Shown: positions 6,868 to 56,210, numbered from the stretch's first letter. The stretch is DNA of 64,000 nt from an uncultured Candidatus Saccharibacteria bacterium (GCA_964479005.1 CAYZJA010000001.1:128001-192000), one strand, 5' to 3'. Notes: generated from the sequence alone by a model not told the origin. Numbers and translations are program-made.

Positions 6868-6916
6868 AAAGTTATCCACAATGGGACTTGACAAGATTTA
6901 AATGTTTGCTATACTA
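6868..6916 (+). promoter_or_regulatory. conserved strong promoter module (DnaA-box-like 9-mer + -35 + extended -10)
   Basis: aagTTATCCACAatgggacTTGACAagatttaaatgtt TGcTATACT. 48 of 49 nt are identical to the minus-strand copy at 29082-29130. Core also shared with 10481-10515. Confidence 0.6.
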
Positions 6917-6919
6917 CGG

Positions 6920-6983
6920 ATGCTGTCGTTTGGAAGTATTTGTTAGCTTGCTAATGGATATGGAAGAGTGGCAGCATTTTTTT
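6920..6983 (+). ncRNA. candidate structured small RNA, copy 1 (promoter-to-terminator unit)
   Basis: AUGCUGUCG…UGGCAGCAU forms a 9-bp outer stem around an inner GUUAG-CUUG-CUAAU hairpin, ending in U7. Both stems are kept in copy 2 by compensatory substitutions. Confidence 0.45.
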
Positions 6984-7212
6984 ATACTTACATAATAACA
7001 AAAGATACGAAGAATTGTCCTTCATATTTTTGATTGACTTTATTAATAAGACGTGATATAGTAAAAATGCTCTTAATTGAGCATTTTTTTGTACTTTGAC
7101 ATTTAAAATATATAGCCGTAACAGGGAAAATTCTTTGTTATTGGAGATAAAAGATAGATTATTAAATGATTTGATTAGTAAAAAATAAATTTAAATAAAG
7201 GAGGAAAGAAAG

Positions 7213-7926
7213 ATGAAAAGGAAGTTAGTTATAGTTTTTGTTTTGTTTATTTTAGTGCTGAGTTTTACTCCAATTTTGAAACACTGGTCTTCAGAATGGG
7301 AATTGAATGCCCCAGTGTTATTGGATAGCGTTCAATTATCGAATGATTGCCGTATATTGTTGGGATCGTATTATTCAAGCGGGGTGATTTATCAGGATAA
7401 TTCTTTTGAATTTATTACTCATTCATCTGATGTGTTTTCTGATGTAAATGGTTTTAGGCCCTATCCTTGGGGAGGAGAAGTGTTTTCAGGAGAAATATCT
7501 TTTTTATGTTCCCTTGATAATTATACAGGATTCAGATCATTTATGATCCAGGGGAAACAGAAAGATGATCATGGCGCCATTGCTGTTCCTGGTTTACTGT
7601 CAAAACCAAATGTAGAATCAGGAGAATTATATTATCTATCGTTTTGGGTGAAATATGATATTCAAGAAGGAGGATTTAGGCTTACACAACAATTCTTTCG
7701 TAAGCAAGACAGCGAATATCCTCATTATGCTTGCTATGGTTCTTTGATTAAAGGTAATAGTAATAAACGCTGGGAGTATGTAGGTTTAATTGTTCAGGCA
7801 CCAATTGATGCTTGGAAAGGAGATCCAGTATTAGAATTGAAAGGCAAGGGATTTGTTTTAGTTGATGATGTTTATTTCGGAAAGATAGAAATAATAAAGG
7901 AGGTGAATAAAGGTGAGATTCTTTAG
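7213..7926 (+). CDS. secreted/membrane-anchored hypothetical protein (possible beta-sandwich carbohydrate-binding protein)
   Basis: Strong SD AAGGAGG, N-terminal signal/TM helix, and a stop overlapping the GTG start of the GT2 gene. Function is inferred only from operon context. Confidence 0.4.
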   Translation: MKRKLVIVFVLFILVLSFTPILKHWSSEWELNAPVLLDSVQLSNDCRILLGSYYSSGVIYQDNSFEFITHSSDVFSDVNGFRPYPWGGEVFSGEISFLCSLDNYTGFRSFMIQGKQKDDHGAIAVPGLLSKPNVESGELYYLSFWVKYDIQEGGFRLTQQFFRKQDSEYPHYACYGSLIKGNSNKRWEYVGLIVQAPIDAWKGDPVLELKGKGFVLVDDVYFGKIEIIKEVNKGEIL

Positions 7927-9196
7927 AAAATTAGGTATTTTTTCTTTTGAGGATTTTGTCTATGCCGGTTCTACTTTTGTGCTCGCGATGTATGTCATTT
8001 GTATTCTTGTAATTACTCTTTTCCAAATAACAGGGCAATCAGTAATTTTTAGCAGCCGTTTTTCACTCTGTTCTTTGGACATTCAATTTCCTTTTTTCTT
8101 AATTATTTGCATCATCCTGATGTATTTGAGTATGTTTATCTGGATTTTTATGGGATTTGCAGGTATATTTTATAGAAAAAAGGTAGATTTGAAGCAAGAA
8201 GATGATTCTACTCTAATATCAGTTCTTATCCCTGCGCATAATGAAGAAGATGTTATAGAAGGTATTTTGGGAGATTTAGTAGCGCAAGAATATAAGAACT
8301 TAGAGATTATCGTATTAGCTCATAATTGTACTGATTCCACAATATCCAGAGCGCAATCAGTAGATGATTCAAGGATTCAAATATTGGATATAAGAACTCG
8401 TAAGTCAGGAAAAGCATTAGCCCTTAACAGAGGATTAGAAGAAGTAAAAGGAGAAATTATTGCTCTATTTGATACTGACAACAGGATAAAAGATAAAAAA
8501 TTCTTTAATCGAGCAATAGTATATTTCAGAGACGAAACCATTGATGCTATCCAAACCGAACTTGCTACAAGTAACAGATCTGCTTCTTTGTTGACTTTTC
8601 TTCAGGAAGTAGAATATGATACTTTCTCTTCAATATCCTGGCGTGGTAGGGATGTTCTAGGTCTTCCTTGTTTTTTAGCAGGAACAGGTATTTTTATCCG
8701 AACAAAAACCTTAAGAGAGATGGGTGGATGGAAAAATTCCTTGGTGGAAGATTTTGAACTTTTTACTAGATTGACTTTGGAAAAGAAGAAGATAGTTTTT
8801 GCTGATAATCTTGTTGTTTATGATGAAAAACCGCCATCTTGGAGTGGAATAATGAAACAAAGATCACGTTGGATAAAAGGTCATTTGAAGGTTACTTGGG
8901 ATAATCTAGATAAGTTTGGAAATTGGTTGGACTATATTTATCGCTTGACTCCTTTAGCTGTTTTTGCATGGTGGGCATCAAATTTCCTATACTGGTTTTA
9001 CTATCTAACTGGCCAAATTTCTATTTTTAATGTAACAGGATGGATTTGGTTAAGTTGGACTTTTGCCTTCTTTGCTCTTCCTACTTATAATAGTATAAAA
9101 AAACGCAGTTGGAAAGGGGTTTTATTTTTGCCTGTTTATTGGTTCTTTGTTTTTCACTTGCTGTGGGCAAGTTTATACAGTTTAGGAGTGAAATGA
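7913..9196 (+). CDS. family-2 processive beta-glycosyltransferase (cellulose/PNAG/chitin-synthase-like)
   Basis: N-terminal TM helices, 'ISVLIPAHNEE…' and 'LFDTDN' (DxD), plus 'QRSRWIKGH' matching the QxxRW processive GT2 motif, and C-terminal TM helices. GTG start preceded by AAGGAGG. Confidence 0.8.
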   Translation: MRFFRKLGIFSFEDFVYAGSTFVLAMYVICILVITLFQITGQSVIFSSRFSLCSLDIQFPFFLIICIILMYLSMFIWIFMGFAGIFYRKKVDLKQEDDSTLISVLIPAHNEEDVIEGILGDLVAQEYKNLEIIVLAHNCTDSTISRAQSVDDSRIQILDIRTRKSGKALALNRGLEEVKGEIIALFDTDNRIKDKKFFNRAIVYFRDETIDAIQTELATSNRSASLLTFLQEVEYDTFSSISWRGRDVLGLPCFLAGTGIFIRTKTLREMGGWKNSLVEDFELFTRLTLEKKKIVFADNLVVYDEKPPSWSGIMKQRSRWIKGHLKVTWDNLDKFGNWLDYIYRLTPLAVFAWWASNFLYWFYYLTGQISIFNVTGWIWLSWTFAFFALPTYNSIKKRSWKGVLFLPVYWFFVFHLLWASLYSLGVK

Positions 9197-10353
9197 AACT
9201 TAGTAGGGAAATTGTAATAACGATTATAATTTTAATCTTTTTATTGGTATCTTTATCCGAATTTGGAGCAACTTTTTATTCTTCTATATCTCAAAAGCAG
9301 AAAAGTAGTAATTATATTTACGATGAGAAAATTATAGTTATAGATGAGAAAGTTATAGAAGATGAAAGACAGGAGATAGAGAATATTCAAATCAGTTTTA
9401 GAGGAATAGATTTCTATCCTGATCCTTATCCTTATTCTACTTCAGAAGCTTTTGATGCCTTAGAACAGCTCCTTAATTTTCAGGGAATGAATTATGTCCA
9501 ATTACGTTTTTTCCTAACTCAAGATTCTCTTACTTCCAACAAAGTGGTTTATGATGAAAAACAAGATATTACTCTAGAAAGCATGATTGTTATGATTCAT
9601 CAAGCAGGAAAGAGAGTATCATTACTGCCTGATATTATCATTAAAACAGGGGATTATGTAGCTAGTCTTAGTCCTGAAGATATTGAACAATGGTTTGCTT
9701 CTTATTATGATGCTTTAATGCACTATGCTATTTTGGCGCAGACATATGATGTAGAATTATACTGTATCGGTAATGAGCTTCATTCTTTATGGATAGAGGA
9801 TCAAAAATGGAGATACATTATTGATAAACTGAGAGAGCAATACAAAGGTTTAGTCACTACTAAACTTAACTGTTGGTGGCAGGAAAAAACATTCCAAAAA
9901 GTATTAACTTATGGTTGGCTGGAAAAACTTGATTATATTGCCATTGCTCCATATTTTGATCTAACGTGGGAAAATGATCTTTCTTTAGAAGAAATAAAGA
10001 GCAGCTGGCAGAATAGTCGTCATGGACTTAATATAGTAGCAGAATTGGAAGAAATCGCTAAAAAATATAAAAAAAAGATGATTTTTTCAGAGATTGGTTA
10101 TAGAAGCATTGATGGAACTACTATTGAACCTTGGAATAGTGATTCTATAGTACCTCGTTCAGGAGGAAGTGGTAAGATTGATTTAGAAGAACAATCCTTA
10201 GCTACTCAAGCTTTATTTGATGTTTTCAAAGATAAAGATTGGTGGGGAGGAGTATTCTGGTTCTATTGGCCGACTGTTAAACCAAATGAACAAGATAAAA
10301 CATGGGCTATATGGAATAAACCAGTACAGCTGGTTATTCAAAATAATTTTTGA
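9193..10353 (+). CDS. membrane-anchored glycoside hydrolase (clan GH-A TIM-barrel-like)
   Basis: N-terminal TM segment. 'YCIGNELH' resembles the NEP acid/base motif and 'IFSEIGYRS' a nucleophile motif, and the protein is aromatic-rich. Start set at the ATG at 9193 (GGAG 5 nt upstream), which overlaps the GT2 stop. Confidence 0.5.
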   Translation: MKLSREIVITIIILIFLLVSLSEFGATFYSSISQKQKSSNYIYDEKIIVIDEKVIEDERQEIENIQISFRGIDFYPDPYPYSTSEAFDALEQLLNFQGMNYVQLRFFLTQDSLTSNKVVYDEKQDITLESMIVMIHQAGKRVSLLPDIIIKTGDYVASLSPEDIEQWFASYYDALMHYAILAQTYDVELYCIGNELHSLWIEDQKWRYIIDKLREQYKGLVTTKLNCWWQEKTFQKVLTYGWLEKLDYIAIAPYFDLTWENDLSLEEIKSSWQNSRHGLNIVAELEEIAKKYKKKMIFSEIGYRSIDGTTIEPWNSDSIVPRSGGSGKIDLEEQSLATQALFDVFKDKDWWGGVFWFYWPTVKPNEQDKTWAIWNKPVQLVIQNNF

Positions 10354-10356
10354 AAC

Positions 10357-10390
10357 AAAGGGGAAGATTAATCTTCCCCTTTTATTTTTT
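10357..10390 (+). terminator. intrinsic terminator of GT2-GH operon
   Basis: aaAGGGGAAGAttaaTCTTCCCCTtttatttttt. Confidence 0.7.
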
Positions 10391-10486
10391 ATAAATATAA
10401 AATATTTTTATCATTTAATTTATAAAGCCAATGAAAGAGTTGGCAAATCATTATTAATATCATATTTTACTTAATTAAGAGTGGAC

Positions 10487-10515
10487 TTGACAAGAAAAAA
10501 AAAGTTTGCTATTGT
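10487..10515 (+). promoter_or_regulatory. promoter (TTGACA-17-TGcTATTGT), third copy of the conserved promoter core
   Basis: 'ggacTTGACAag' and 'gtttGCTAT' are shared with the 6868 and 29130 modules. Confidence 0.5.
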
Positions 10516-10521
10516 GTTTTC

Positions 10522-10678
10522 ACGGTGGGGCTTTTATTTTAGCCCCGCAGTGGGGCTTATGAATAATATTCAAAAAAGGGGATTTCATAATTTAAACAAA
10601 ATTTCTTTTCGATTTCTTGCGTTTAGTAAAATTGAAAAAGAAGTTTTTTGAGGTTGGCGTTTTTGCGCCAACTTTTTA
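10522..10678 (+). ncRNA. structured leader or sRNA with alternative hairpins and intrinsic terminator
   Basis: GGGGCU-uuuauuuu-AGCCCC (10527-10546) overlaps AGCCCC-gcagu-GGGGCU (10541-10557), giving two mutually exclusive pairings. Later GTTGGCG-uuuuug-CGCCAAC plus U5 (10653-10677). The next gene starts at 10736. Confidence 0.4.
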
Positions 10679-10735: not shown

Positions 10736-11998
10736 ATGAAAAAAATAATAACAATTTTAAGTACTTCCCTTTTGATGTTTGCTTTTGTAACTTCAGTTTC
10801 CGCAGCAGCTCCGAATTGGAATGTCAGTGGAACATGGATGGCAGAGCATGAGTTCGGGGGGAATACTTACTCTCATGTAAACAACATTGTTCAAGCACTA
10901 GACGGTTCCCTGACGGGGACCGGAGGATGGGATGGTACGCAAAACGGCATCCCCGTTGGTACTCCTAATACATGGGAGATAACCAACGGTTCGGTTTCTG
11001 GTAACAACATTCAATTTAACTACCAATACAATACCGTCGAGTTATGCGCCAAGGATGGAGGTATTGATGCAGTAATTAATGCTGACGGTTCTATGACTGG
11101 AACATGGCATGATGATTGTGGTACTGGACGAACTGGCGCATGGACAGTCCCAGCAGGTTCCGCAGTCTATTTAAGAACTGCAGAAATTACTTCTCCAACA
11201 TCAGGAGAAGAAGTTTCGGGAATGGTTTCATTTGATGCAATACTAACTGACAAAGATGGTGATGATAGTGTTCAATGGGCAGTTCGTCAGGGTACTTGCA
11301 CTGCAGGAATAGGAACAGTGTTTGGTAATGTAGATGGTAAATCAGATATCTACACTTGGGATCATGTCAATTTCCATGCATCAGCCGATACTTCTTCCTG
11401 GGCTCCTGGAAATTACTGTTTTGTCTTTAATCCCACAGAGAGTGCTGGAGATATAGCTATTAGAGAGACACGAGAGTTTATCCTAAAAGACACTGTAGCA
11501 CCATTGGTAACGATAGAAAGTCCTAGTGAGGGTGATGTTGTTTCTGGTACAGTTGAAATTTATGGAACTGTTGTAGAATACTATATGCTAAGTCACTACA
11601 ATATCTCGGTTTATCCAGGTGATGCCGACTTTAATGATTTCAGCAAAAGAATAGCTCAAGCAACTATTTATCGCACTACGGGTTTTAGTAATGAATTAAT
11701 TTTCGCATGGGATTCAACTGGATTTGAAGATGGCGAGTATCTAATTAGATTAGCTGCTAGAGACGCTGCTGGTAATCGTAGTTATGATGGCGATGCATAT
11801 CTAGGTGGTGATGATTCACAGCATGTGATTAGAGTAACTGTGAATAATATACCAGACCTAATTGGTCCACCGATTAATAAAGATCAATGTAAAAAAGATG
11901 GTTGGAAGATATTTGATAATCCAAGTTTTAAGAATCAGGGAGATTGTGTAAGTTATGTCCAGAGTAATGAAAATGCAAAAGGAAATAAAAATAAATAA
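10736..11998 (+). CDS. secreted protein with Ig-like beta-sandwich repeats
   Basis: Signal peptide 'MKKIITILSTSLLMFAFVTSVSAAAP'. Gly/Thr/Asp-rich beta-type composition. Noticeably GC-richer than its neighbours. A-rich leader with no SD. Confidence 0.5.
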   Translation: MKKIITILSTSLLMFAFVTSVSAAAPNWNVSGTWMAEHEFGGNTYSHVNNIVQALDGSLTGTGGWDGTQNGIPVGTPNTWEITNGSVSGNNIQFNYQYNTVELCAKDGGIDAVINADGSMTGTWHDDCGTGRTGAWTVPAGSAVYLRTAEITSPTSGEEVSGMVSFDAILTDKDGDDSVQWAVRQGTCTAGIGTVFGNVDGKSDIYTWDHVNFHASADTSSWAPGNYCFVFNPTESAGDIAIRETREFILKDTVAPLVTIESPSEGDVVSGTVEIYGTVVEYYMLSHYNISVYPGDADFNDFSKRIAQATIYRTTGFSNELIFAWDSTGFEDGEYLIRLAARDAAGNRSYDGDAYLGGDDSQHVIRVTVNNIPDLIGPPINKDQCKKDGWKIFDNPSFKNQGDCVSYVQSNENAKGNKNK

Positions 11999-12023
11999 AA
12001 AATAAATAAAAAAAATAAAAAAT

Positions 12024-13772
12024 ATGAATAAACAATTATTCTCTAAAACGATTTCACTTTTCTTAGTTTTTTCTTTGGTGTTCGTAGGTGTTTCAATATT
12101 TTCACCAAATAATATTGAAGCTAAAGGACAGAAACCAAATAACAAAATATCAATTTGTCATAGAACTAGTTCTGCTACTAATCCTTGGAATGTAATTAAT
12201 GTTAGTGTTAATGCTCAAGATGCTCACTTAGCTCATGGAGATTTTCTTTATGAAGGTAGTTATCCAGTGAATTCTAAAGAAGCAGAGGAATGGTGTGGCA
12301 TGACTAGATATACTTGTAATGAAAGTACTTGGCAATGTGTAATTGATAACCAAGGTCAATATTCAAGTTATGATGATTGTTCAACTGTTTGTCAGGAACC
12401 AATGGCAACTGTAACAATTTGTAAATATGACGAAGAAAGGAATCCTTTAAGTGGATGGAAAATGATTTTGAAAGGGGATTTGCAAGACCAAGTAACTGTT
12501 TTTCCTGATGGGTCAGCATATTTGTCAGGAGATTTACCATTAGAAGATTATTTATTAATGGCTTCTGGTCAATATGTTTATAGGCCTGGAACTTTAGGGG
12601 CTGAATATTCTGATGCTGGCTATACTAAGAGGAATTGTCCAGGAGATGCTACTTATTTATGTAGTGGTCCCTATACCCCATGGTTTAATGTTTTTGATAT
12701 TATAGGTATTCATAAAGGATGGTTGGGGATTATGGTTAATGACGCCGCAACTAATTGGGGTTCTTACTTTAACTCTGCTCATACTTATGCTCTGGGATAT
12801 CCTAATTATAGTGGTTCATTATCTTTTACAATTAAAGATGATGTGTATAGTGATAATTCAGGACAATTAAATGTTGATATTTATAAAGGATATACTGGGG
12901 AGACAGATGAAAATGGTTGTATAACCTTTAATGATGTTCCTTTGGAAACTTATTCTCTTGAGGAAATTCTTAAAGATGGATGGCAAAATGTTAGTGGTTT
13001 AGGACAGATTGTTATTGATGAATCTCAAGAAACTTTTGATGTGATTAATAGTGAAATTAAAAGCGAAAAAGAACTAGCATGCATAAATTCAGGTGGCACA
13101 GTTGGAACAGGTATATGCTGCAAAAGTGTAGAAGGTTTTCCAAATGATTGTGCTACAGGAGCCTGCGGTTGTTCTGCAGGAGATAGCCATGAAGTTCAGG
13201 TTTGTAATTGTCCAGCAGGCAAATGTTTTGATGGAAATTCCTGCGTAACAAAATGTGAAGAAGGAATTAATCTTCTTAAAAACGGTAGTTTCGAATATCC
13301 GGAAGTAACTAATACAAGCAAATGGCAGTTATTTCCATCAGGGACAGCTCTACTTGAATGGGTAGTTGGATGGGTTAGCGCTGCTCCATCAGACCCTCCA
13401 ACAATTGAAATACAGAAAGGCGTAGTAGTTTCTCCTAGTAATGGACTTCAAAGCATTGAATTAGATTCAGAAGCTCCAACCTATATTTCTCAAGCAGTTA
13501 ATACAGAATCTGGCTATGGATATAAATTAAGCTTTGATTTTGCAGCCAGGCCTAATACTTCAGAAGAAGATAATAAATTAGAGGTTTGGGCTGATAGTAT
13601 TCTTAAAGATAGTATTAGCAGCAATACATCTTGGCAAACAAAAACATATAATTTTAATGCTACTTCTAACCTTACGGAAATCAAATTCGTGGATATAGGA
13701 ATTCCTAATACCGATTCAATGGGTACATTATTAGATAATGTTAAATTAGAATGTGTTCCGCCGGTTCTGTAA
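12024..13772 (+). CDS. secreted surface protein (SpaA/Cna-B-like domain + C-terminal lectin-like domain)
   Basis: Signal peptide. The 'TVTICKYDEERNPLSGWKMILKGD…' domain and the C-terminal 'NGSFEYPEVT…LDNVKLECVP' domain are both paralogous to parts of the next gene. Confidence 0.55.
   Translation: MNKQLFSKTISLFLVFSLVFVGVSIFSPNNIEAKGQKPNNKISICHRTSSATNPWNVINVSVNAQDAHLAHGDFLYEGSYPVNSKEAEEWCGMTRYTCNESTWQCVIDNQGQYSSYDDCSTVCQEPMATVTICKYDEERNPLSGWKMILKGDLQDQVTVFPDGSAYLSGDLPLEDYLLMASGQYVYRPGTLGAEYSDAGYTKRNCPGDATYLCSGPYTPWFNVFDIIGIHKGWLGIMVNDAATNWGSYFNSAHTYALGYPNYSGSLSFTIKDDVYSDNSGQLNVDIYKGYTGETDENGCITFNDVPLETYSLEEILKDGWQNVSGLGQIVIDESQETFDVINSEIKSEKELACINSGGTVGTGICCKSVEGFPNDCATGACGCSAGDSHEVQVCNCPAGKCFDGNSCVTKCEEGINLLKNGSFEYPEVTNTSKWQLFPSGTALLEWVVGWVSAAPSDPPTIEIQKGVVVSPSNGLQSIELDSEAPTYISQAVNTESGYGYKLSFDFAARPNTSEEDNKLEVWADSILKDSISSNTSWQTKTYNFNATSNLTEIKFVDIGIPNTDSMGTLLDNVKLECVPPVL
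12560..12742. repeat. inter-paralog DNA repeat, copy 1
   Basis: ~180 nt, >90% identical to 16548-16730, with perfect runs of 46, 40 and 26 nt (e.g. tattctgatgctggctatactaagaggaattgtccaggagatgct). Confidence 0.8.
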
Positions 13773-13878
13773 GTTATAAATAATATCCGGCAATTACAAA
13801 AGAAAAAGTTGATAGGATTTAATGGCGAATTAACCGTTCATTTTAAATAAAAGATTAAAAAGTTAAATATATAAAAAA

Positions 13879-16800
13879 ATGAAAAAACAATTTTTCTCTA
13901 AAACATTTTCAATTTTCTTGGCACTTTCTTTTGTACTTTCTAATAGCGCAATGTTAGTGCCATTACAAGCTGAAGCTTGTGAGGAAGAAATATGCGAAGA
14001 CGTTATTGTGGTAAGTAATATAGAAGATAAGGTTTTTGATATTGCAGAAACTCTTCCCGGTGAAGCAGCTGTTCTTGCTTGGGATGATCATCCGGCATGG
14101 ACAGCGTATATTGAAGGCGCAAATTGGATTTGGAAGACAGAATATGTAGAAAATCCTGATCAAGACGAAACATATATATTTAAAAAAGATTTTGATATTG
14201 TTGGCATTCCAGATTCTGCAACATTAAAAGTTGCAACTGATAATTCGTATAGTGTTTGGGTTAACAATGTTTTGATTGGAGAAGTTATAACTGAAGATAA
14301 TCACAGTTCAACAACCCAAGATCAATATAATAATATCGTTGACTTTCATACCGGTTCAAATGAAATTAAATTTGAAGTTAAAAACTGGGCAGGAAATGCG
14401 TCACCGAAATTAAATCCTGCAGGTCTTTTGTATAGACTTGAGATTGTAAGATCTTCTTGTGAACCTCAATGTATACCTCAATCTTCTATAGAAACAGACT
14501 GTACTAATGGTTTAGATGATGACTGCGATGGTTTTATTGATAGTGAAGATTCTGATTGTCAGATGTTAATAATGGCTTCTAAAGTAATTTGTGATAATGA
14601 ATCAGATTTACCTAATTGGGGGACAGGATCTGGAGTTGACTATCCTTCATATAACATTGATCAAAACACAGCTTCGGATTATGTAGCTGAACATTCTGGT
14701 TGTTATTTAGCTTCTAATTGGTTTTTTCAATGGGGACAACAAGGTTCTGATGATTTTGGAAAAGACTTTTATGGAGAAGCTGGCAATGGCTACACTACTT
14801 TTGGGCCAACAAATGAAAATGGAGTAGCTAGTACAACAGTGGATTCTGTTACCGGTAGTTATTTGGAATTAAGGGAAGTTCTGCAGCAAGGTTATATTCC
14901 TTTTACGTATGACCAATCACATAAATCTAATGATAATAATATTTCTGCAGAATTTTATTGCCACAATGATATTCTCAATTATGATAACTGGGATTATATA
15001 AAAAATCCTCAATTAGGAATTACTCATTATTGCGTTGGATTTAATGCATTAATCGAACAAGAAGAACCAGAACCTGTTTGTGGAAATGAAATTATAGAAA
15101 CTGGTGAACAATGTGATCCACCTTCAACCACTGCTCCTAATTCTACTGATGAATATTTCTGTGACCAAAATTGTAATTTAGTTCCTATCTATCATTCTCT
15201 GGATGGTTGTCCAAAAAATCAAATCCTAGAATTTATTCAGTCTTATCAAATTCATTCAACTAGTACGACAGAAGTTATTATTCCTGTGAGTGGTAGCGAT
15301 ACATATAAGTTTGAAGTTAAAGGAACTTTTTATCCTACTCAAAATGGAAAAAATGAGAATTTCCTATCAGATGCCGCCTATACGACTGAAGATGGCTGGG
15401 TTTCAACTTCTACAAAATACGGAATTAAAGGCATACCACCTGATTATGCTGCCCATGCTTTATTAGGTGATTTAGGATTAGGGGCTGGAGTAATTAATTG
15501 GGGAGATTATGATTCTTCTCATGAATATGATTTCTCTTACACAATTCCTTCAGGCGCTACTTCTACTCAATTTGTGATAGGTGATAGATGGGATAATTGG
15601 TTTATACCAGATGATATTAGTTGGAATAATCAAGGCGGAATGAAAGATAATCTTGGAAATTTGACTTTAGATGTTTATGAGTGTAAGCCAATCCAAGCTA
15701 GATGTGATCCTAAGTTAGAATTAGTTATGAATGGCGATTTTGAGAGTCCTGAAGTGACTGATCTAGTAAAAAAATGGGGTATTTTTCCATCAGGGACAAC
15801 CGATTTAGAATGGTTAATTAATTGGAGAGAAATTTGGCCTTCAGCACCAAAAATAGCAAATCTTGAAATTCAGAAAAGTTATTATACTCCAGTAATAGCT
15901 CCTGTAGTTCCTGGAGATCCAGATCAATATGCTGAGTTAGATACTGATTGGCATGGTCCAGGTGGACCTTCTGGTGAACCAGCCTCAGTAGCTATTTCTC
16001 AAGATATTCCAACAATTATAGGGGAAACTTATAGATTAAGTTTTGATTTTTCACCACGACCATATACTGATTTAGAACAGAATCATTTAAAGGGTTTTGT
16101 TGATAGCGCTGAATTATTTGATATTTCTGCTGATGGTTCTGGTTTAACAGATACTTTATGGAATCAATATTCTGATAATTTTGTTGCTACAAGTTCAATA
16201 ACAAACATTAAATTTACTGATTATGGTACACCAGACTCTTTAGGCACTTTCTTAGATAATGTTAGCGTAAGATGTGTTCCTCAGGACGAACCTACTATGT
16301 ATCATTGTAATGAGGAATGGCAATGTATAGCAGATCCTGAAGGTGAATATAATACTGATAATTGTGACAATCAATGTATTAAACCTGGAACATCCACAGT
16401 TACTATTTGTAAATATAATGAACAAGAAGAACCTTTAAGAGGTTGGAAGATGATACTTAAAGGTGATAGGTATGATACAGTGCCTGTTTTTCCAGATGGG
16501 CAAAATTATTCTTCAAATCCTTTGCTATTAGGTGATTACTTAATTCAGGCTTCTGGTCAATATTTATATAGACCAGGAACACCTGGCGCTGAGTATTCTG
16601 ATGCTGGCTATACTAAGAGGAATTGTCCAGGAGATGCTGATTATTTATGCAGTGGAGATTATACCCCATGGTTTAATGTTTTTGATATTATAGGTATTCA
16701 TCAAGGATGGTTGGGGATTATGGTTAATGATAATCTTACTGATTGGGGGTATTTTACTTCTGACCATACTTATACTCTTGGCTATCCTGGTTATAGTGGT

Positions 16801-18201
16801 TCGTTCACTTTTACTATAAAGGATGATGTATATTCAGATAATAGTGGATCATTAACAGTTAAAATCTATAAAGGCTATGTAGGGGAAACTGGAGAAAAAG
16901 GATGTGTTACATTTAATGGTGTTCCTTATGGCGAGTATATAGTTGATGAAGATCTTCAAAGTGGTTGGATAAATCAAGATGGTTTAGGAAATGTTACAGT
17001 AGATGACCTAGAAGAAACATTTGATGTTGTCAATATTCCACCAGAAGGACAGATAGGTTCTTTAACTGTTTGTAAATATAGAGATCACGAACCATTTGGG
17101 GAATACAATACAGGTATTGATACACCTCTAACTTGGGAGATGAGAATTATTGGACCTAATAGTTATGATCAATTGTACGAAACTGATCCTCAGAATGGAT
17201 GCAAAACAATAAATAATTTAGAATATGGCCAATATGTAGTTTCTGAAGAATTGAAGATTGGTTGGGATCAAACTTATCCTCTTGATCCTAATACCCATAC
17301 CATTGATATAAATGGCGGTAATTCTAATCCATCAGTATATTTCTTGAATTATAAAACAATTGATAATGGTGGAACAAAATATGCTTGTAATGCAGAAGGG
17401 CAATGTATAGAAAATGAAGGGGGTAATTATACCACTTCTAATTGTGATGAAGAATGTAGACCATATCCATATACTTGTAATTCATCTACCTCAGAATGTG
17501 TACGTGATGTTCATGGCCAATTTGGTTTATTGCAAGGTTGTGAGGATGCTTGTAGGGTATCTACTCCATTAGGAGGTCAATATGCAATATTGGGAACAGT
17601 TTTGGGTGCTGCTACTGAAAAGGAAGAAGAACCTTGCGGTCTTTATCTTTTGGAATACATAAAGCTTGGAGGTGATAATAATCCTGAGGAAGTGAAGAAA
17701 TTACAATATTTCTTAAATGAATATCTTGGCATTAATTTAGAGATAACAGGAGTTTATAATCAAGCTACTTATCAAGAAGTTATGAGATTCCAGCTTCTTT
17801 TGAACGATGAAATTTTGGCTCCTTGGGTTGAAGTTAATTGTCTTCCATCTAGTAATATAGCTACTGGTTATGTTTATCGAACAACACAATGGAAAATAAA
17901 TATGATTGTTTGTCCAGAATTGAACCTTCCAGTACCGAATTTATATGATGAAACTTGTAAATATATTAGTCTATATCCAGGAGAAGGTGTAGTTGCTGGA
18001 GCAGCTACTTCTACAGTGGGTGGAACTAATGGAACTACCACAACTACCTCAACTACAACTCCTGAAACAATAGGAGATACTACAACAACTGTTCCTCAAG
18101 ATACTGGGGATGAGCAGTCACAAAATTGGATTTGGGTTTTGATTGGACTTTTAGTGATTGGCGGCGCAGCTTATTTGGTTTATCAAACTAGACAAGTATA
18201 A
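13879..18201 (+). CDS. giant (1440 aa) cell-surface protein with C-terminal TM anchor
   Basis: Signal peptide, multiple Cys-rich beta domains, two regions ~70% identical in protein to the 12024 gene product, a Thr-rich stalk (TTTTSTTTPETIGDTTTT), and a C-terminal helix 'WIWVLIGLLVIGGAAYLVY'. Confidence 0.6.
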   Translation: MKKQFFSKTFSIFLALSFVLSNSAMLVPLQAEACEEEICEDVIVVSNIEDKVFDIAETLPGEAAVLAWDDHPAWTAYIEGANWIWKTEYVENPDQDETYIFKKDFDIVGIPDSATLKVATDNSYSVWVNNVLIGEVITEDNHSSTTQDQYNNIVDFHTGSNEIKFEVKNWAGNASPKLNPAGLLYRLEIVRSSCEPQCIPQSSIETDCTNGLDDDCDGFIDSEDSDCQMLIMASKVICDNESDLPNWGTGSGVDYPSYNIDQNTASDYVAEHSGCYLASNWFFQWGQQGSDDFGKDFYGEAGNGYTTFGPTNENGVASTTVDSVTGSYLELREVLQQGYIPFTYDQSHKSNDNNISAEFYCHNDILNYDNWDYIKNPQLGITHYCVGFNALIEQEEPEPVCGNEIIETGEQCDPPSTTAPNSTDEYFCDQNCNLVPIYHSLDGCPKNQILEFIQSYQIHSTSTTEVIIPVSGSDTYKFEVKGTFYPTQNGKNENFLSDAAYTTEDGWVSTSTKYGIKGIPPDYAAHALLGDLGLGAGVINWGDYDSSHEYDFSYTIPSGATSTQFVIGDRWDNWFIPDDISWNNQGGMKDNLGNLTLDVYECKPIQARCDPKLELVMNGDFESPEVTDLVKKWGIFPSGTTDLEWLINWREIWPSAPKIANLEIQKSYYTPVIAPVVPGDPDQYAELDTDWHGPGGPSGEPASVAISQDIPTIIGETYRLSFDFSPRPYTDLEQNHLKGFVDSAELFDISADGSGLTDTLWNQYSDNFVATSSITNIKFTDYGTPDSLGTFLDNVSVRCVPQDEPTMYHCNEEWQCIADPEGEYNTDNCDNQCIKPGTSTVTICKYNEQEEPLRGWKMILKGDRYDTVPVFPDGQNYSSNPLLLGDYLIQASGQYLYRPGTPGAEYSDAGYTKRNCPGDADYLCSGDYTPWFNVFDIIGIHQGWLGIMVNDNLTDWGYFTSDHTYTLGYPGYSGSFTFTIKDDVYSDNSGSLTVKIYKGYVGETGEKGCVTFNGVPYGEYIVDEDLQSGWINQDGLGNVTVDDLEETFDVVNIPPEGQIGSLTVCKYRDHEPFGEYNTGIDTPLTWEMRIIGPNSYDQLYETDPQNGCKTINNLEYGQYVVSEELKIGWDQTYPLDPNTHTIDINGGNSNPSVYFLNYKTIDNGGTKYACNAEGQCIENEGGNYTTSNCDEECRPYPYTCNSSTSECVRDVHGQFGLLQGCEDACRVSTPLGGQYAILGTVLGAATEKEEEPCGLYLLEYIKLGGDNNPEEVKKLQYFLNEYLGINLEITGVYNQATYQEVMRFQLLLNDEILAPWVEVNCLPSSNIATGYVYRTTQWKINMIVCPELNLPVPNLYDETCKYISLYPGEGVVAGAATSTVGGTNGTTTTTSTTTPETIGDTTTTVPQDTGDEQSQNWIWVLIGLLVIGGAAYLVYQTRQV
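16548..16730. repeat. inter-paralog DNA repeat, copy 2
   Basis: Matches 12560-12742. Confidence 0.8.
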
Positions 18202-24677: not shown

Positions 24678-24726
24678 GTTCTTGACTTCCTTAATAGATT
24701 GGCTATAATTGGATATAGCTAATATA
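24678..24726 (+). promoter_or_regulatory. fic promoter (TTGACT-16-TATAAT) embedded in a 10-bp inverted repeat
   Basis: ATTGGCTATA (24687-24696) and TATAGCCAAT (24717-24726) flank the -10 element and the likely transcription start. Confidence 0.45.
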
Positions 24727-24738
24727 GCCAATAATCAT

Positions 24739-25800
24739 ATGGCAAGAAATAAACAATTTGATCAGAGAATAGAAAATATTCCTACAGAAATTTGGTCAAA
24801 GCTTATACAAATTGATGAATTAAAGGGGCAATGGATTGCCGGCGCTCGGTTGAGCCCACAAGTTTTAAACCACCTTAAGCGGTCTGTTTTGATTACTTCT
24901 ACTGGTGCCTCAACTCGTATTGAGGGAGCTCGGCTTTCTGACGAAGATGTTGAGAAATTAATGCGTGGTATTGATATTCAGAAGTTTACTGACCGTGATA
25001 AGCAGGAAGTAAAGGGATATTTTGAATTACTAGAAAATATTTTTGATTCTTGGAGATCGATTAAGCTTTCAGAAAGCGCTATCAAGCATTTTCACAAAGA
25101 GCTTTTGAAGTATGTAAAAAAGGATGAACTCCACAGAGGTGATTATAAGAAAACCGAGAATAAAGTTGAGATGATTGATGCAGCTGGTAAATCCATCGGA
25201 ACTCTTTTTGACACTACACCGGTATATCTTACCCCGAAAGAAATGCAGGAATTAGTAGAGTGGACCCGAGAATCTTTGGCTGAAAAAAAATCTCATCCAC
25301 TTTTGATTGTTGGTAATTTTCTTGTTGAGTTTTTACAGATTCATCCATTCCAAGATGGCAATGGCCGGCTTAGCCGTGTTCTTACAAATCTTCTTTTATT
25401 GAAAGAGGGATATTTATATATGCCCTATATTTCTCATGAGAAGCTGGTTGAAGACAATAAGCCGGATTACTATATGGCCTTACGCAGAAGTCAAAAGACT
25501 TTTAAGACAGATCACGAAGACATCACTTCGTGGTTGGATTTCTTTTTGACTATTTTATTGAAGCAGTCAAAGATGGCCGTTGAGCTACTCTCAAAAGAGA
25601 ACATTGAAAAACTTCTTTCAATGAAGCAACTTGCTGTTTGGGAGTATTTGCAAAAGGCAAAAGAAACTACTACCGGCGAGATTATCAGAGGAACCAAGAT
25701 TACACGGCCTACTGTAAAACAGGCTCTTAACAAATTATTGCGTCTCAAAAAAATTGAACGCATTGGGCTCGGTAGAAGCACAAGATATAGAAAATTATGA
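24739..25800 (+). CDS. Fic/Doc family protein (putative AMPylase) with C-terminal winged-helix
   Basis: Canonical Fic motif 'HPFQDGNGRLSRVLTNLLL'. The start is moved to 24739 because the track's 24709 start lies inside the promoter -10 region. Confidence 0.85.
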   Translation: MARNKQFDQRIENIPTEIWSKLIQIDELKGQWIAGARLSPQVLNHLKRSVLITSTGASTRIEGARLSDEDVEKLMRGIDIQKFTDRDKQEVKGYFELLENIFDSWRSIKLSESAIKHFHKELLKYVKKDELHRGDYKKTENKVEMIDAAGKSIGTLFDTTPVYLTPKEMQELVEWTRESLAEKKSHPLLIVGNFLVEFLQIHPFQDGNGRLSRVLTNLLLLKEGYLYMPYISHEKLVEDNKPDYYMALRRSQKTFKTDHEDITSWLDFFLTILLKQSKMAVELLSKENIEKLLSMKQLAVWEYLQKAKETTTGEIIRGTKITRPTVKQALNKLLRLKKIERIGLGRSTRYRKL

Positions 25801-46248: not shown

Positions 46249-47160
46249 ATGTTCAGAAATTCAAATCGTTTTGGAATTTTTATTATTATTTTAATTTTTT
46301 TTGGATTTTTATCCTCAATCTTTTTATTTCCAAAAAAAACATTTTCAGAAATGCTTTCTACTTCTGTACAGGTACAGATAGTAACTACAACCATCGGTGG
46401 CGGAGGTGGGGGTGGGGGATATATTCCACCTTTGCCACCAGAAACAAAAGTTATTTTTGAAGGAAGGGCTTATCCTTTAAGTAAAGTTAATATTCTTAAA
46501 GATGGTCAGTTAGCTGTTAGCACTATTTCTGGTCCAGATGCAAAATTTTATGTTTCAATAGAAGGCTTATCTTCTGGAAACTATTTGTTTGCAGTTTATA
46601 GCGAGGATAGTCAGGGAAGACGTTCTGTATTATTCACTTTTCCGGTTTTTATTACTCAAGGAGTCACCACCAAGATAAGTGGTATTTTTATTGCGCCAAC
46701 TATTGATGTAGATAAATTGGAAGTCAAAAAAGGGGAAGTAATTAAAATTTTTGGCCAAACAGTTCCTAATATCGATGTTGCCGTTATCATTAATTCCGAA
46801 GAAGAAATTTATGGGAAAACAAAATCAGACGAAATAGGCGCTTATCTTTATAATTTAGATACTATAGAAGTAGAAATGGGAAATCATTTGGCAAAATCAA
46901 GGGCTACTATTGAAGAAGAAATTAGTCCTTTATCGCAAGCAATAAGTTTTAAGGTAGGAACAAAAACAGTTTTAAAAGAAACTGTAAAAATACCAGAAAA
47001 AGGGGATTTAAATAATGATAAAAGGGTAAATTTGGTTGATTTTTCCATTCTTGCTTATTGGTATCAAAGGCCATCACCTTCAGCAACAGTTGATTTTAAC
47101 AATGATGGAAAAGTAAACTTAGTGGATTTTAGTATAATGGCATACTACTGGACAGGTTAA
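46249..47160 (+). CDS. secreted protein with C-terminal type-I dockerin
   Basis: Two Ca-binding repeats: 'DLNNDKRVNLVDFSILAYW' and 'DFNNDGKVNLVDFSIMAYYW'. Also an internal Gly8 tract. Confidence 0.7.
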   Translation: MFRNSNRFGIFIIILIFFGFLSSIFLFPKKTFSEMLSTSVQVQIVTTTIGGGGGGGGYIPPLPPETKVIFEGRAYPLSKVNILKDGQLAVSTISGPDAKFYVSIEGLSSGNYLFAVYSEDSQGRRSVLFTFPVFITQGVTTKISGIFIAPTIDVDKLEVKKGEVIKIFGQTVPNIDVAVIINSEEEIYGKTKSDEIGAYLYNLDTIEVEMGNHLAKSRATIEEEISPLSQAISFKVGTKTVLKETVKIPEKGDLNNDKRVNLVDFSILAYWYQRPSPSATVDFNNDGKVNLVDFSIMAYYWTG

Positions 47161-54659: not shown

Positions 54660-56210
54660 ATGGATATAAATCATATTGGAATAACAAATTTTAGAGATGA
54701 ATTTCAGCGATTTGGCATTAAAGCCGATGATAGGCGTCGGCATATATATTTTGTTGGAAAGAGTGGAGTAGGTAAGACTACAATGATGGAGAATATGATT
54801 ATTCAGGATATTAATAATGACAAAGGTGTATGTGTTATTGATCCTCACGGAGAATTAATAAACAGAGTTCTTTACTTTATTCCTGAAAACAGAATAAAAG
54901 ATGTGATTTATTTTAATCCTGGCGATGTTGAATGGCCAATTGCTTTTAATGTTATTGAAGAAGTTCCAGTAGAATATCGCCATTTGGTTGTAGCGGGTTT
55001 AATGGGAGTCTTTAAAAAAATCTGGCCAGATGTATGGTCTGCCAGAATGGAATATATCTTAAATAATGCTTTACTGGCTCTTTTAGAATATCCTGGAGCA
55101 ACGCTTTTAGCTGTAAACAGATTGCTTTCTGACGAAGATTTTCGTAAAGCAGTAATGAAAAAGGTAACAGATCCAATAGTTAAATCTTTTTGGGAAAGAG
55201 AGTTTGCTCGTTATAATGCCCGCTTTGCGACAGAAGCAATTGCTCCAATTCAAAATAAAGTTGGGCAATTTATTTCAAACCCTTTAATTAGAAATATTAT
55301 TGGACAGAAAGAATCAAAAATTGATATCAGGAAAATAATGGATGATGGTAAGATTCTTTTAGCTAATTTGTCAAAAGGAATGGTTGGTGAGGATAATTCT
55401 AGTCTTTTGGGAGCTCTCTTGGTTACAAAAATACAATTAGCTGCAATGAGCCGTATAGATGTTCCTGAAGAGAAAAGAAAGGATTTTTATTTGTACGTAG
55501 ATGAGTTTCAAAATTTTTCCACTGAATCATTTGCTTCTATTTTTGCCGAAGCTAGAAAGTATCGTTTAAACTTAGCTTTAGCTCATCAATATATAGCTCA
55601 ACTTAATGAGCAAGTTAAAGATTCTATTTTTGGTAATATAGGAACTTTGATTTCTTTTAGATTGGGCCCTGAAGACGCGGAATTACTGGAAAAATATTTT
55701 GCTCCAGAATTTTCAAAAGAAGATTTAATTAATCTTCCAAATTATAATTTTTATATAAAATTGATGATTGATGGTGTTTTGTCCAAAAGTTTTTCAGCGA
55801 TGAATATACCACCTTCTAGTTTGCCAGAGAACTCGTTTATACAAGAAATAATTCAGTATTCACGTGAGCATTATGCTGCTTTGCGGCAAGAAATTGAAAA
55901 GAATATCGCGCATTGGGAGTTATTGGATTTTTCTCCAAGCTTCAAGGCAGGGGATCTTAGAAGCAGAAAAGTTGGCGTTAAAGAAGGTTGGGAAGCTGTA
56001 TGTTCTCAATGTGGAAAAAGAATTATTGTACCTTTTCAACCAGATCCTGCCAGGCCTGTTTATTGTGATGAATGTTTTAAAGAAATACGAAGGCAAAGAG
56101 GAAAAGATTTAACACATGCAAATTCTGTTCAGCATACTCAATCTAAAATTAAACCAAAAAAAGAAGAAATAAAGGAGGTAATTAAAAATATTTTCCGTCA
56201 GGATACTTAA
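54660..56210 (+). CDS. TraD/VirD4/HerA-FtsK-superfamily P-loop ATPase with C-terminal zinc ribbon
   Basis: Walker A 'FVGKSGVGKTT' followed by 'VIDPHGE' (compare TrwB 'DPKGD'). Walker B 'LYVDEFQNF'. 'EARKYRLNLALAHQ' is a sensor/arginine-finger region. Terminal 'CSQCGKRII…PVYCDEC'. Confidence 0.55.
   Translation: MDINHIGITNFRDEFQRFGIKADDRRRHIYFVGKSGVGKTTMMENMIIQDINNDKGVCVIDPHGELINRVLYFIPENRIKDVIYFNPGDVEWPIAFNVIEEVPVEYRHLVVAGLMGVFKKIWPDVWSARMEYILNNALLALLEYPGATLLAVNRLLSDEDFRKAVMKKVTDPIVKSFWEREFARYNARFATEAIAPIQNKVGQFISNPLIRNIIGQKESKIDIRKIMDDGKILLANLSKGMVGEDNSSLLGALLVTKIQLAAMSRIDVPEEKRKDFYLYVDEFQNFSTESFASIFAEARKYRLNLALAHQYIAQLNEQVKDSIFGNIGTLISFRLGPEDAELLEKYFAPEFSKEDLINLPNYNFYIKLMIDGVLSKSFSAMNIPPSSLPENSFIQEIIQYSREHYAALRQEIEKNIAHWELLDFSPSFKAGDLRSRKVGVKEGWEAVCSQCGKRIIVPFQPDPARPVYCDECFKEIRRQRGKDLTHANSVQHTQSKIKPKKEEIKEVIKNIFRQDT

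Follow-up and report, generated by a model that had tools for sequence, protein, structure and literature searches.

Most bacteria of the candidate phyla radiation (CPR) are uncultured. Their cells are tiny and are thought to be attached to others, and little is known of how they build their surfaces or of what they attach with. A 64,000 nt stretch of DNA from an uncultured Candidatus Saccharibacteria bacterium (GCA_964479005.1 CAYZJA010000001.1:128001-192000), here called the window, includes three overlapping genes that raise the question of whether such a cell could make, hold and trim an extracellular polysaccharide with three proteins. A preliminary description had read the genes, at 7213-10353, as encoding a secreted protein, a processive family 2 glycosyltransferase (GT2) and a membrane-anchored hydrolase of clan GH-A, in a CPR-like genome. 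Their coordinates and order were confirmed, and a CPR-like origin fits both the labels of the closest homologues, which are Pacebacteria, Paceibacterota or Parcubacteria, and the GC content of the region (~30-35%). The genes, the first of which is here called ORF1 (open reading frame 1), are as follows:

7213-7926, plus strand: ORF1, a membrane-anchored or secreted protein of 237 aa with an N-terminal hydrophobic helix and a beta-sandwich resembling a carbohydrate-binding module (CBM) at residues ~87-229
7913-9196, plus strand: GT2 membrane synthase of 427 aa, C-terminally truncated relative to all of its relatives, with DxD at 8471-8479, ED at 8747-8752 and QRSRW at 8858-8872
9193-10353, plus strand: family 113 glycoside hydrolase (GH113, clan GH-A) of 386 aa, with a transmembrane (TM) anchor at ~9211-9264, acid/base E195 at 9775-9777 and nucleophile E300 at 10090-10092

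The three genes probably make up an operon for a synthase-dependent extracellular polysaccharide system that has been reduced to three membrane proteins. The evidence that they are one linked system is as strong as sequences can provide, because their order is conserved across different neighbourhoods and their products are joined in natural fusions. The order ORF1, GT2, GH113 was found in every related locus that was long enough. There are ~20 such loci, with examples among the metagenome loci L095-L108, and the lowest identities of ORF1 among them are 44-47%. None of the related loci with enough sequence lacked one of the three members. The flanking genes vary, and there are at least four neighbourhoods, namely the window type, which lies beside rplJ-rplL, and those of L004, L008/L009 and L010. 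A fifth locus, L110, is rearranged, with the GT2 followed directly by a gene for a 631 aa fusion protein (P0087) that consists of an ORF1 domain, two TM segments and GH113. In L107, the GT2 and GH113 form a single 820 aa protein with a TM linker. These fusions fix the topology, placing the C-terminus of the GT2 in the cytoplasm and making ORF1 and GH113 face outward.

In P0031 (from locus L007) and P0032, the GH113 carries an N-terminal family 4 carbohydrate esterase (CE4) deacetylase domain in an otherwise identical three-gene arrangement. The CE4 domain of P0031 keeps the IYDDG (Asp) and HTCNH (His) motifs, and its GH113 is 68% identical to the one in the window. The 4.5 kb contig L007 (JGI Ga0366834_1081637, also in NCBI) bears the label Candidatus Heimdallarchaeaceae. 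With three proteins that are 68-75% identical to those of the window, it has probably been mis-binned.

The three-gene arrangement is not universal for the GT2 family, as archaeal homologues in L013 and L014 (35-37% identity) lie among other, unannotated genes and are accompanied by neither GH113 nor ORF1. The flanking proteins there are ~305 aa and 505-528 aa, and beyond them are radical-SAM, methyltransferase and beta-propeller genes. In L015 (Methanobacterium sp. MBAC-LM), two response-regulator receiver domains precede the GT2 homologue in a 783 aa fusion protein, which suggests that a polysaccharide synthase is controlled directly by phosphorelay in this methanogen. As a clue to the sugar, this fusion was uninformative.

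The GT2 matched the Pfam family Glyco_tranf_2_3 (6.9e-28), and the DxD and QRSRW motifs of processive beta-glycan synthases recognised in the preliminary description are kept on alignment, together with ED. D141, D187-T-D189, E279-D280 and Q316-R-S-R-W320 were invariant in an alignment of 48 sequences. FDTDN, VED and QRSRW in the window protein align to FDADH, TED and QQRGRW in BcsA, its best solved relative. The AlphaFold2 (AF2) model (pLDDT 92.9) has two N-terminal TM helices, a GT-A domain and, at the C-terminus, a bundle of helices, with helices predicted at residues 12-39, 60-84, 310-330, 338-365, 376-398 and 400-423, and the TM or interface helices around the GT domain could form a channel. 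Foldseek ranked BcsA first for this model (1.8e-15), followed by the Pyrobaculum membrane mannosyltransferase PcManGT and by hyaluronan synthase (HAS; ~1e-13).

The top NCBIfam match of the GT2 was PgaC_IcaA (TIGR03937 equivalog; 5.7e-29), at 101.3 bits and below the cut-off of 422.3, and the CelA model scored 39 bits with a cut-off of 699. JGI annotates homologues as 'cellulose synthase/PNAG synthase-like', PNAG being poly-beta-1,6-N-acetylglucosamine. When a hidden Markov model (HMM) of the GT2 family, covering CPR and archaeal members, was used, PssC-like GT2s scored 194-216 bits, E. coli PgaC 137 and NfrB 26. Single-sequence searches with the window GT2 gave 114 bits for PssC-like proteins vs 77 for E. 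coli PgaC. A scan for the GT2 pattern in one genome per species returned, among the matches listed, distant GT2s of no more than 34% identity, including those of the Listeria and Clostridium Pss loci.

The downstream protein matched the Pfam GH113 family (PF22612) at 1.6e-37, with 129.9 bits vs a cut-off of 27 and coverage of profile positions 12-276 of 289. Solved GH113 mannanases matched at 1e-19 to 5e-14, the Alicyclobacillus beta-mannanase (4cd6/3civ) at 1e-19. By residue counts from the alignment, N194-E195 corresponds to the acid/base E151 of AaManA and E300 to its nucleophile E231, and neither catalytic glutamate varies within the clade. The preliminary description had let its reading depend on the downstream protein being a glycosidase and on the GT2 having the catalytic motifs on alignment, and both were found. 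All GH113s whose activity has been measured are beta-1,4-mannanases or mannosidases, a large Bacteroidetes GH113 clade that tends to adjoin GT2 genes was inactive on every mannan tested, and GT2-linked GH113s have been proposed to remodel a self-made polymer (PMC9032380). Mannanase or mannosidase activity should therefore not be taken for granted in the window enzyme.

ORF1 has a hydrophobic N-terminus (MKRKLVIVFVLFILVLSF) and no sequence match in Pfam, NCBIfam or the PDB, and belongs to no described CBM family. Only 40 relatives were recovered when 1.84 billion representative proteins were searched with a profile. Structure prediction, which the preliminary description had suggested as a check for a CBM fold, gave an N-terminal helix that would serve as an anchor, followed by a jelly-roll beta-sandwich like those in CBM4, CBM22 and CBM70. 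A binding function is made less certain by residues 53-84, which contain the most conserved motif of the family and were modelled with low confidence, and a role other than sugar binding is conceivable from the model. Relationships with BcsB (hhalign probability 1.4%) and with the DUF642 domains of the giant secreted proteins encoded nearby were considered, and neither was detectable.

In the mechanism that we propose from homology and topology, the GT-A domain of the GT2 would lie in the cytoplasm and polymerise a sugar nucleotide, and the chain would be exported through the synthase's own TM helices, as in BcsA, HAS and PgaC. The GH113, tethered outside by a single N-terminal TM helix, would cut the emerging beta-linked chain so as to free it, control its length or remove polymer that has stalled. 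ORF1 would be anchored outside, probably beside the synthase, and bind the same polymer in place of BcsB or PssD. The logic of a synthase plus trimming hydrolase, for which the preliminary description had invoked BcsA/BcsZ, is considerably strengthened by the conserved gene order and by the GT2-GH113 and CBM-like-GH113 fusions. The likeness does not extend to kinship of the hydrolase with BcsZ, and activity of the synthase in this genome is doubtful as it has lost its tail (see below).

As the polymer, we tentatively favour a beta-1,4-linked chain of the N-acetylmannosamine (ManNAc) type, related to Listeria Pss, and in the relatives whose GH113 has a CE4 domain such a chain would be partly deacetylated. 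In Listeria, the Pss polymer has a backbone of beta-1,4-linked ManNAc with Gal branches and is cut by a membrane-bound, outward-facing hydrolase (PMC13492145). For a C. difficile locus that includes GT2, BcsB, GH113, WecB and a deacetylase resembling CE4, the predicted product is a ManNAc polymer that has been deacetylated in part (Scott et al., PMC7710045). The loci compared here included the Listeria pss operon (L022) and a Pss-like operon of Clostridium sp. (L057), which has the order GGDEF-DUF2334-GT2-BcsB-GH113. A Thermofilum homologue of the GT2 (39% identity over the full length) is encoded between genes for a UDP-sugar dehydrogenase and a UDP-N-acetylglucosamine (UDP-GlcNAc) 2-epimerase. 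The dehydrogenase gene upstream of that GT2 (L012, 5160-6014, Thermofilum sp.), of the UDP-glucose/GDP-mannose dehydrogenase family, encodes only 284 aa, with matches to the N-terminal and central domains and none to the C-terminal one, and it may be truncated or atypical.

Several observations count against a ManNAc-type product. No homologues of UDP-GlcNAc 2-epimerase or UDP-sugar dehydrogenase were found in the 64 kb window or within 10 kb of any three-gene locus, and the identity between PssC and the window GT2 is only ~30%. The combination of CE4 and GH domains recalls PgaB and so points to PNAG, and the best curated match of the GT2 is PgaC_IcaA, though far below the cut-off.

With neither a deacetylase nor an epimerase in the window operon, and with PcManGT as the second-best structural match of the GT2, the product could instead be a beta-1,4 glycan without modification (a mannan or glucomannan, or a chain resembling cellulose or chitin), which the GH113 would trim as an ordinary enzyme of beta-mannanase type. 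Characterised GH113s do cleave beta-1,4-mannan and glucomannan, but the GT2-adjacent Bacteroidetes clade did not act on any of the mannans tested (PMC9032380). The apparently intact CE4 deacetylase of P0031, a close relative, would make little sense without acetyl groups, and the nearest characterised synthase relatives make N-acetylhexosamine polymers. We consider an unmodified glycan unlikely.

A Pga/Ica-type system, in which the GT2 would make PNAG and the GH113, fused to CE4 in some relatives, would take the deacetylase-hydrolase role of PgaB, is distinctly unlikely. It would account for the top NCBIfam match, for the JGI names and for the way in which the CE4-GH113 fusion mirrors the architecture of PgaB, and UDP-GlcNAc is the likeliest sugar nucleotide in a peptidoglycan-bearing CPR cell. 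However, the PgaC_IcaA score is 101 bits where the cut-off is 422, PssC-like GT2s outscore E. coli PgaC with both the family HMM (216 vs 137 bits) and single sequences (114 vs 77 bits), a 2-epimerase gene flanks the Thermofilum homologue, and the known PNAG hydrolases are in other families, GH153 and GH20. The measured GH113s, moreover, all act on beta-1,4-mannosides (PMC9032380).

That the genes are not one system at all, with GH113 and ORF1 a mannan-scavenging catabolic pair and the GT2 between them an unrelated lipid or protein glycosyltransferase, is barely credible: GH113s are best known from mannan catabolism, degradative enzymes typically pair a CBM with a GH, and constraint is apparent for the hydrolase of this genome and not for its GT2, but GT2 and GH113 are one polypeptide in L107, gene order is invariant and reading frames overlap in all loci across several neighbourhoods, the GT2 has QxxRW and a BcsA/HAS-like TM architecture that is not that of a monotopic transferase, and linked genes include neither a sugar transporter nor a downstream catabolic enzyme.

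In the window, the synthase gene has undergone a deletion. The GT2s of close relatives are 444-465 aa (456 aa in L005), and that of the window is 427 aa. A tail with the motif S-W-x-x-T-K-T-x-H-x-G or W-x-K-T-x-R is present in all of the other aligned GT2s (47/47), and the window protein ends just before it. The C-terminus of PssC-like proteins contains K-W-Y-K-T-E-R-F and that of E. coli PgaC R-W-V-S-P-D-R-G. DNA alignment revealed a lineage-specific deletion of 80 nt that lies between short direct repeats (GGAGTGAAAT and GGAGGTGA..GAAATG):

9183-9199, plus strand: junction of the 80 nt deletion (GGAGTGAAATGAAAC), placed by DNA alignment, protein alignment and contig L114

The GT2 stop codon and the GH113 ATG overlap by 4 nt (ATGA), as the preliminary description had reported, but the overlap was produced by this deletion and so is not ancestral. 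The native ribosome-binding site (RBS) of GH113 was also lost, and AGGAG remains 5 nt before its ATG. An assembly error is unlikely, because an independently assembled contig (L114; JGI 3300005782) has the same deleted form. It differs from the window at 2 of 10,572 nt.

The lost tail motif sits where BcsA and CesA have FxVTxK and where HAS and chitin synthases (CHS) have WGTR/KG, and it has the same pattern of an aromatic residue, Thr and a basic residue. From this position and residue pattern, we infer that the W-x-x-T-K tail may correspond to the gating loops of BcsA (FxVTxK) and HAS (WGTR). Mutation of the gating-loop Trp or Phe abolishes the activity of HAS or BcsA, and the loop contacts UDP (PMC11750622, PMC9934533).

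Substitutions private to this lineage differ between the genes. In the GT2, there are 15 nonsynonymous and 13 synonymous private changes vs 15 and 65 pooled in three relatives (Fisher p=0.001). Among the former is W416L, which replaces a Trp that is otherwise conserved in 94% of sequences. The corresponding counts are 7:18 vs 30:39 in the relatives for GH113 and 12:7 vs 19:25, which is not significant, for ORF1. As the tail motif has been lost and an excess of private amino-acid changes is seen in the GT2 and not in GH113, the window GT2 is probably under relaxed constraint and the hydrolase is not, and on balance this copy of the synthase appears to be impaired or dead. Other features argue for a working enzyme. 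The truncated GT2 is an intact reading frame with all of the GT-A motifs, and its nonsynonymous excess stays below the neutral expectation of ~3:1. The equation of the tail with a gating loop also found no support in direct alignment to solved synthases, as a single-sequence search with the tail returned nothing and the HMM alignment to BcsA ends before it.

A bolder account, to which we give little credence, is that repeat-mediated deletion has knocked out the synthase here and that the anchored hydrolase and binding protein have been kept under selection, with the locus otherwise being an undescribed minimal CPR secretion machine, with related GT2s in archaea, in which a new CBM-like family replaces BcsB or PssD. 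If this were so, the cell would have ceased to make the polymer, and the two remaining proteins would bind and cut the same polymer where neighbours produce it or where it coats the host, which would suit an episymbiont.

The three reading frames are closely packed. The ATG of ORF1 is preceded by AGGAGG, 8 nt upstream. The GT2 begins with the GTG that the preliminary description had placed across the end of ORF1. This codon lies 14 nt within ORF1, has AGGAGG upstream and is supported as the start because relatives share the N-terminus from the first residue. Relatives of GH113 start at the same residue as the window protein. No terminator hairpin was found inside the three-gene module, and the operon is bounded by the following features:

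10357-10392, plus strand: intrinsic terminator closing the operon, with a strong hairpin at 10357-10382 (11 bp stem, 5 GC pairs) and a T-run
6888-6915, plus strand: best promoter-like site upstream of the operon, TTGACA-16-TATACT, TG-extended, 11/12 match
7085-7212, plus strand: leader or 5' region of ORF1 including the AGGAGG RBS, nearly 100% identical in L005, L096 and L099

Right after the promoter-like site is a hairpin with a U-run (6919-6985; free energy, dG, -23.1, z -3.7), and pairing in this first hairpin is kept in L096 via a compensatory double change (G>A / C>T). Strong promoters of sigma-70-like type (TTGACA..TG-TATACT), each with a stable hairpin and U-run within a few bases, were found at 6888-6990, 7034-7095 and 10487-10560, with promoter-proximal hairpins of dG -23.1 (z -3.7) and dG -11.4 (z -4.5). 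Two such units lie 5' of the conserved leader, and they could be tiny RNAs or promoter-proximal terminators. The 128 nt leader is almost identical in the relatives although synonymous divergence (dS) in the adjacent genes is 0.19-0.37, which suggests that it is a conserved regulatory element. Its predicted fold was weakly better than those of shuffled sequences (z -1.95). No riboswitch or other known RNA was found upstream of the operon, as neither the promoter hairpins nor the leader matched an Rfam family.

Directly downstream of the operon, at 10736-18201, are genes for three large secreted proteins with Big_7, SpaA-like and DUF642 domains, which may be surface proteins. The same arrangement is found in L005, and the segments at 12408-13042 and 16396-17027 are paralogous (76% DNA identity). 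Elsewhere in the window are genes for a TrwB/VirD4-like coupling protein with a zinc finger (54660-56210), a small dockerin type I protein (46249-47160) and a Fic-domain protein (24709-25800).

The pairing of GH113 with a GT2 has already been noted twice in the literature (PMC7710045, PMC9032380). In Bacteroidetes GH113 clade 5, the same pairing was read as building or remodelling a self-made polymer (Couturier et al. 2022). However, that clade is in another phylum, and the three-gene arrangement, the CBM-like partner, membrane anchoring and fusions were not part of that study. We found no paper on this three-gene arrangement in CPR bacteria, and what appears to be new is the unannotated CBM-like third partner, the fusions that link the parts, the CPR setting and the natural truncation of the synthase. 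A three-protein system to make, hold and trim a polymer would be a concrete, clonable candidate for CPR surface chemistry. It would also give a job to GT2-adjacent GH113s, of which those assayed to date have resisted plant mannans, and it would make of the ORF1 family a new carbohydrate-binding module whose ligand is defined. For synthases of the PgaC/PssC type, the truncation found here is a natural test case of whether the C-terminal W-x-x-T-K tail is the gating loop.

Among characterised systems, the Pss of Listeria or clostridia comes closer than Bcs. PssC-like GT2s score highest of the characterised relatives (194-216 bits with the family HMM) and share the C-terminal W-x-K/x-T motif with this GT2 family, and a deacetylase is associated with some members. 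A membrane-bound, outward-facing hydrolase that cuts the polymer, or here would cut it, is common to both systems (PMC13492145), and the clostridial version uses GH113 for this purpose (L057; PMC7710045). The two differ in that the BcsB-type PssD, the GGDEF-type receptor for cyclic di-GMP (c-di-GMP) PssE and the DUF2334 protein PssB of the Listeria system (pssA-E and PssZ) are absent from the window operon. PssD and PssE are also absent from the related three-gene loci and are present in L022 and L057. Upstream, instead of PssD, is a small CBM-like protein of an undescribed family. The hydrolase of Listeria, PssZ, is GH8 and not GH113.

With Bcs, the system shares a membrane-embedded, processive-type GT2 with D, DxD, ED and QxxRW, for which BcsA is the best PDB match in both sequence and structure, and an operon that also encodes an extracytoplasmic carbohydrate-binding partner, here putative, and a dedicated glycosidase. 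Unlike BcsA, the synthase has no PilZ domain and no TM helices after the gating-loop position, and its partner is a single 237 aa beta-sandwich rather than BcsB. BcsZ is GH8, and the likeness to BcsA/BcsZ is therefore functional and not homologous. The GT2s of PgaABCD and IcaADBC are similar in size and topology, with two N-terminal TM helices, a GT-A domain and C-terminal helices, and PgaC_IcaA is the top curated match, with a CE4+GH fusion in relatives that resembles PgaB. Against this, the PgaC_IcaA score reaches only a quarter of its cut-off, E. coli PgaC scores lower than PssC-like proteins in the searches with this GT2 family, there is no PgaD/IcaD homologue and no outer-membrane porin, and the hydrolase is of another family.

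As judged from its sequence, the system works like Bcs, Pga/Ica and Pss and is a member of none of them: it falls below the PgaC_IcaA and CelA cut-offs, it does without PilZ, BcsB/PssD, PssE and PgaD, and its hydrolase is GH113 rather than GH8 or GH153. Current ideas are not overturned by it, as its logic is that of the known synthase-dependent systems.

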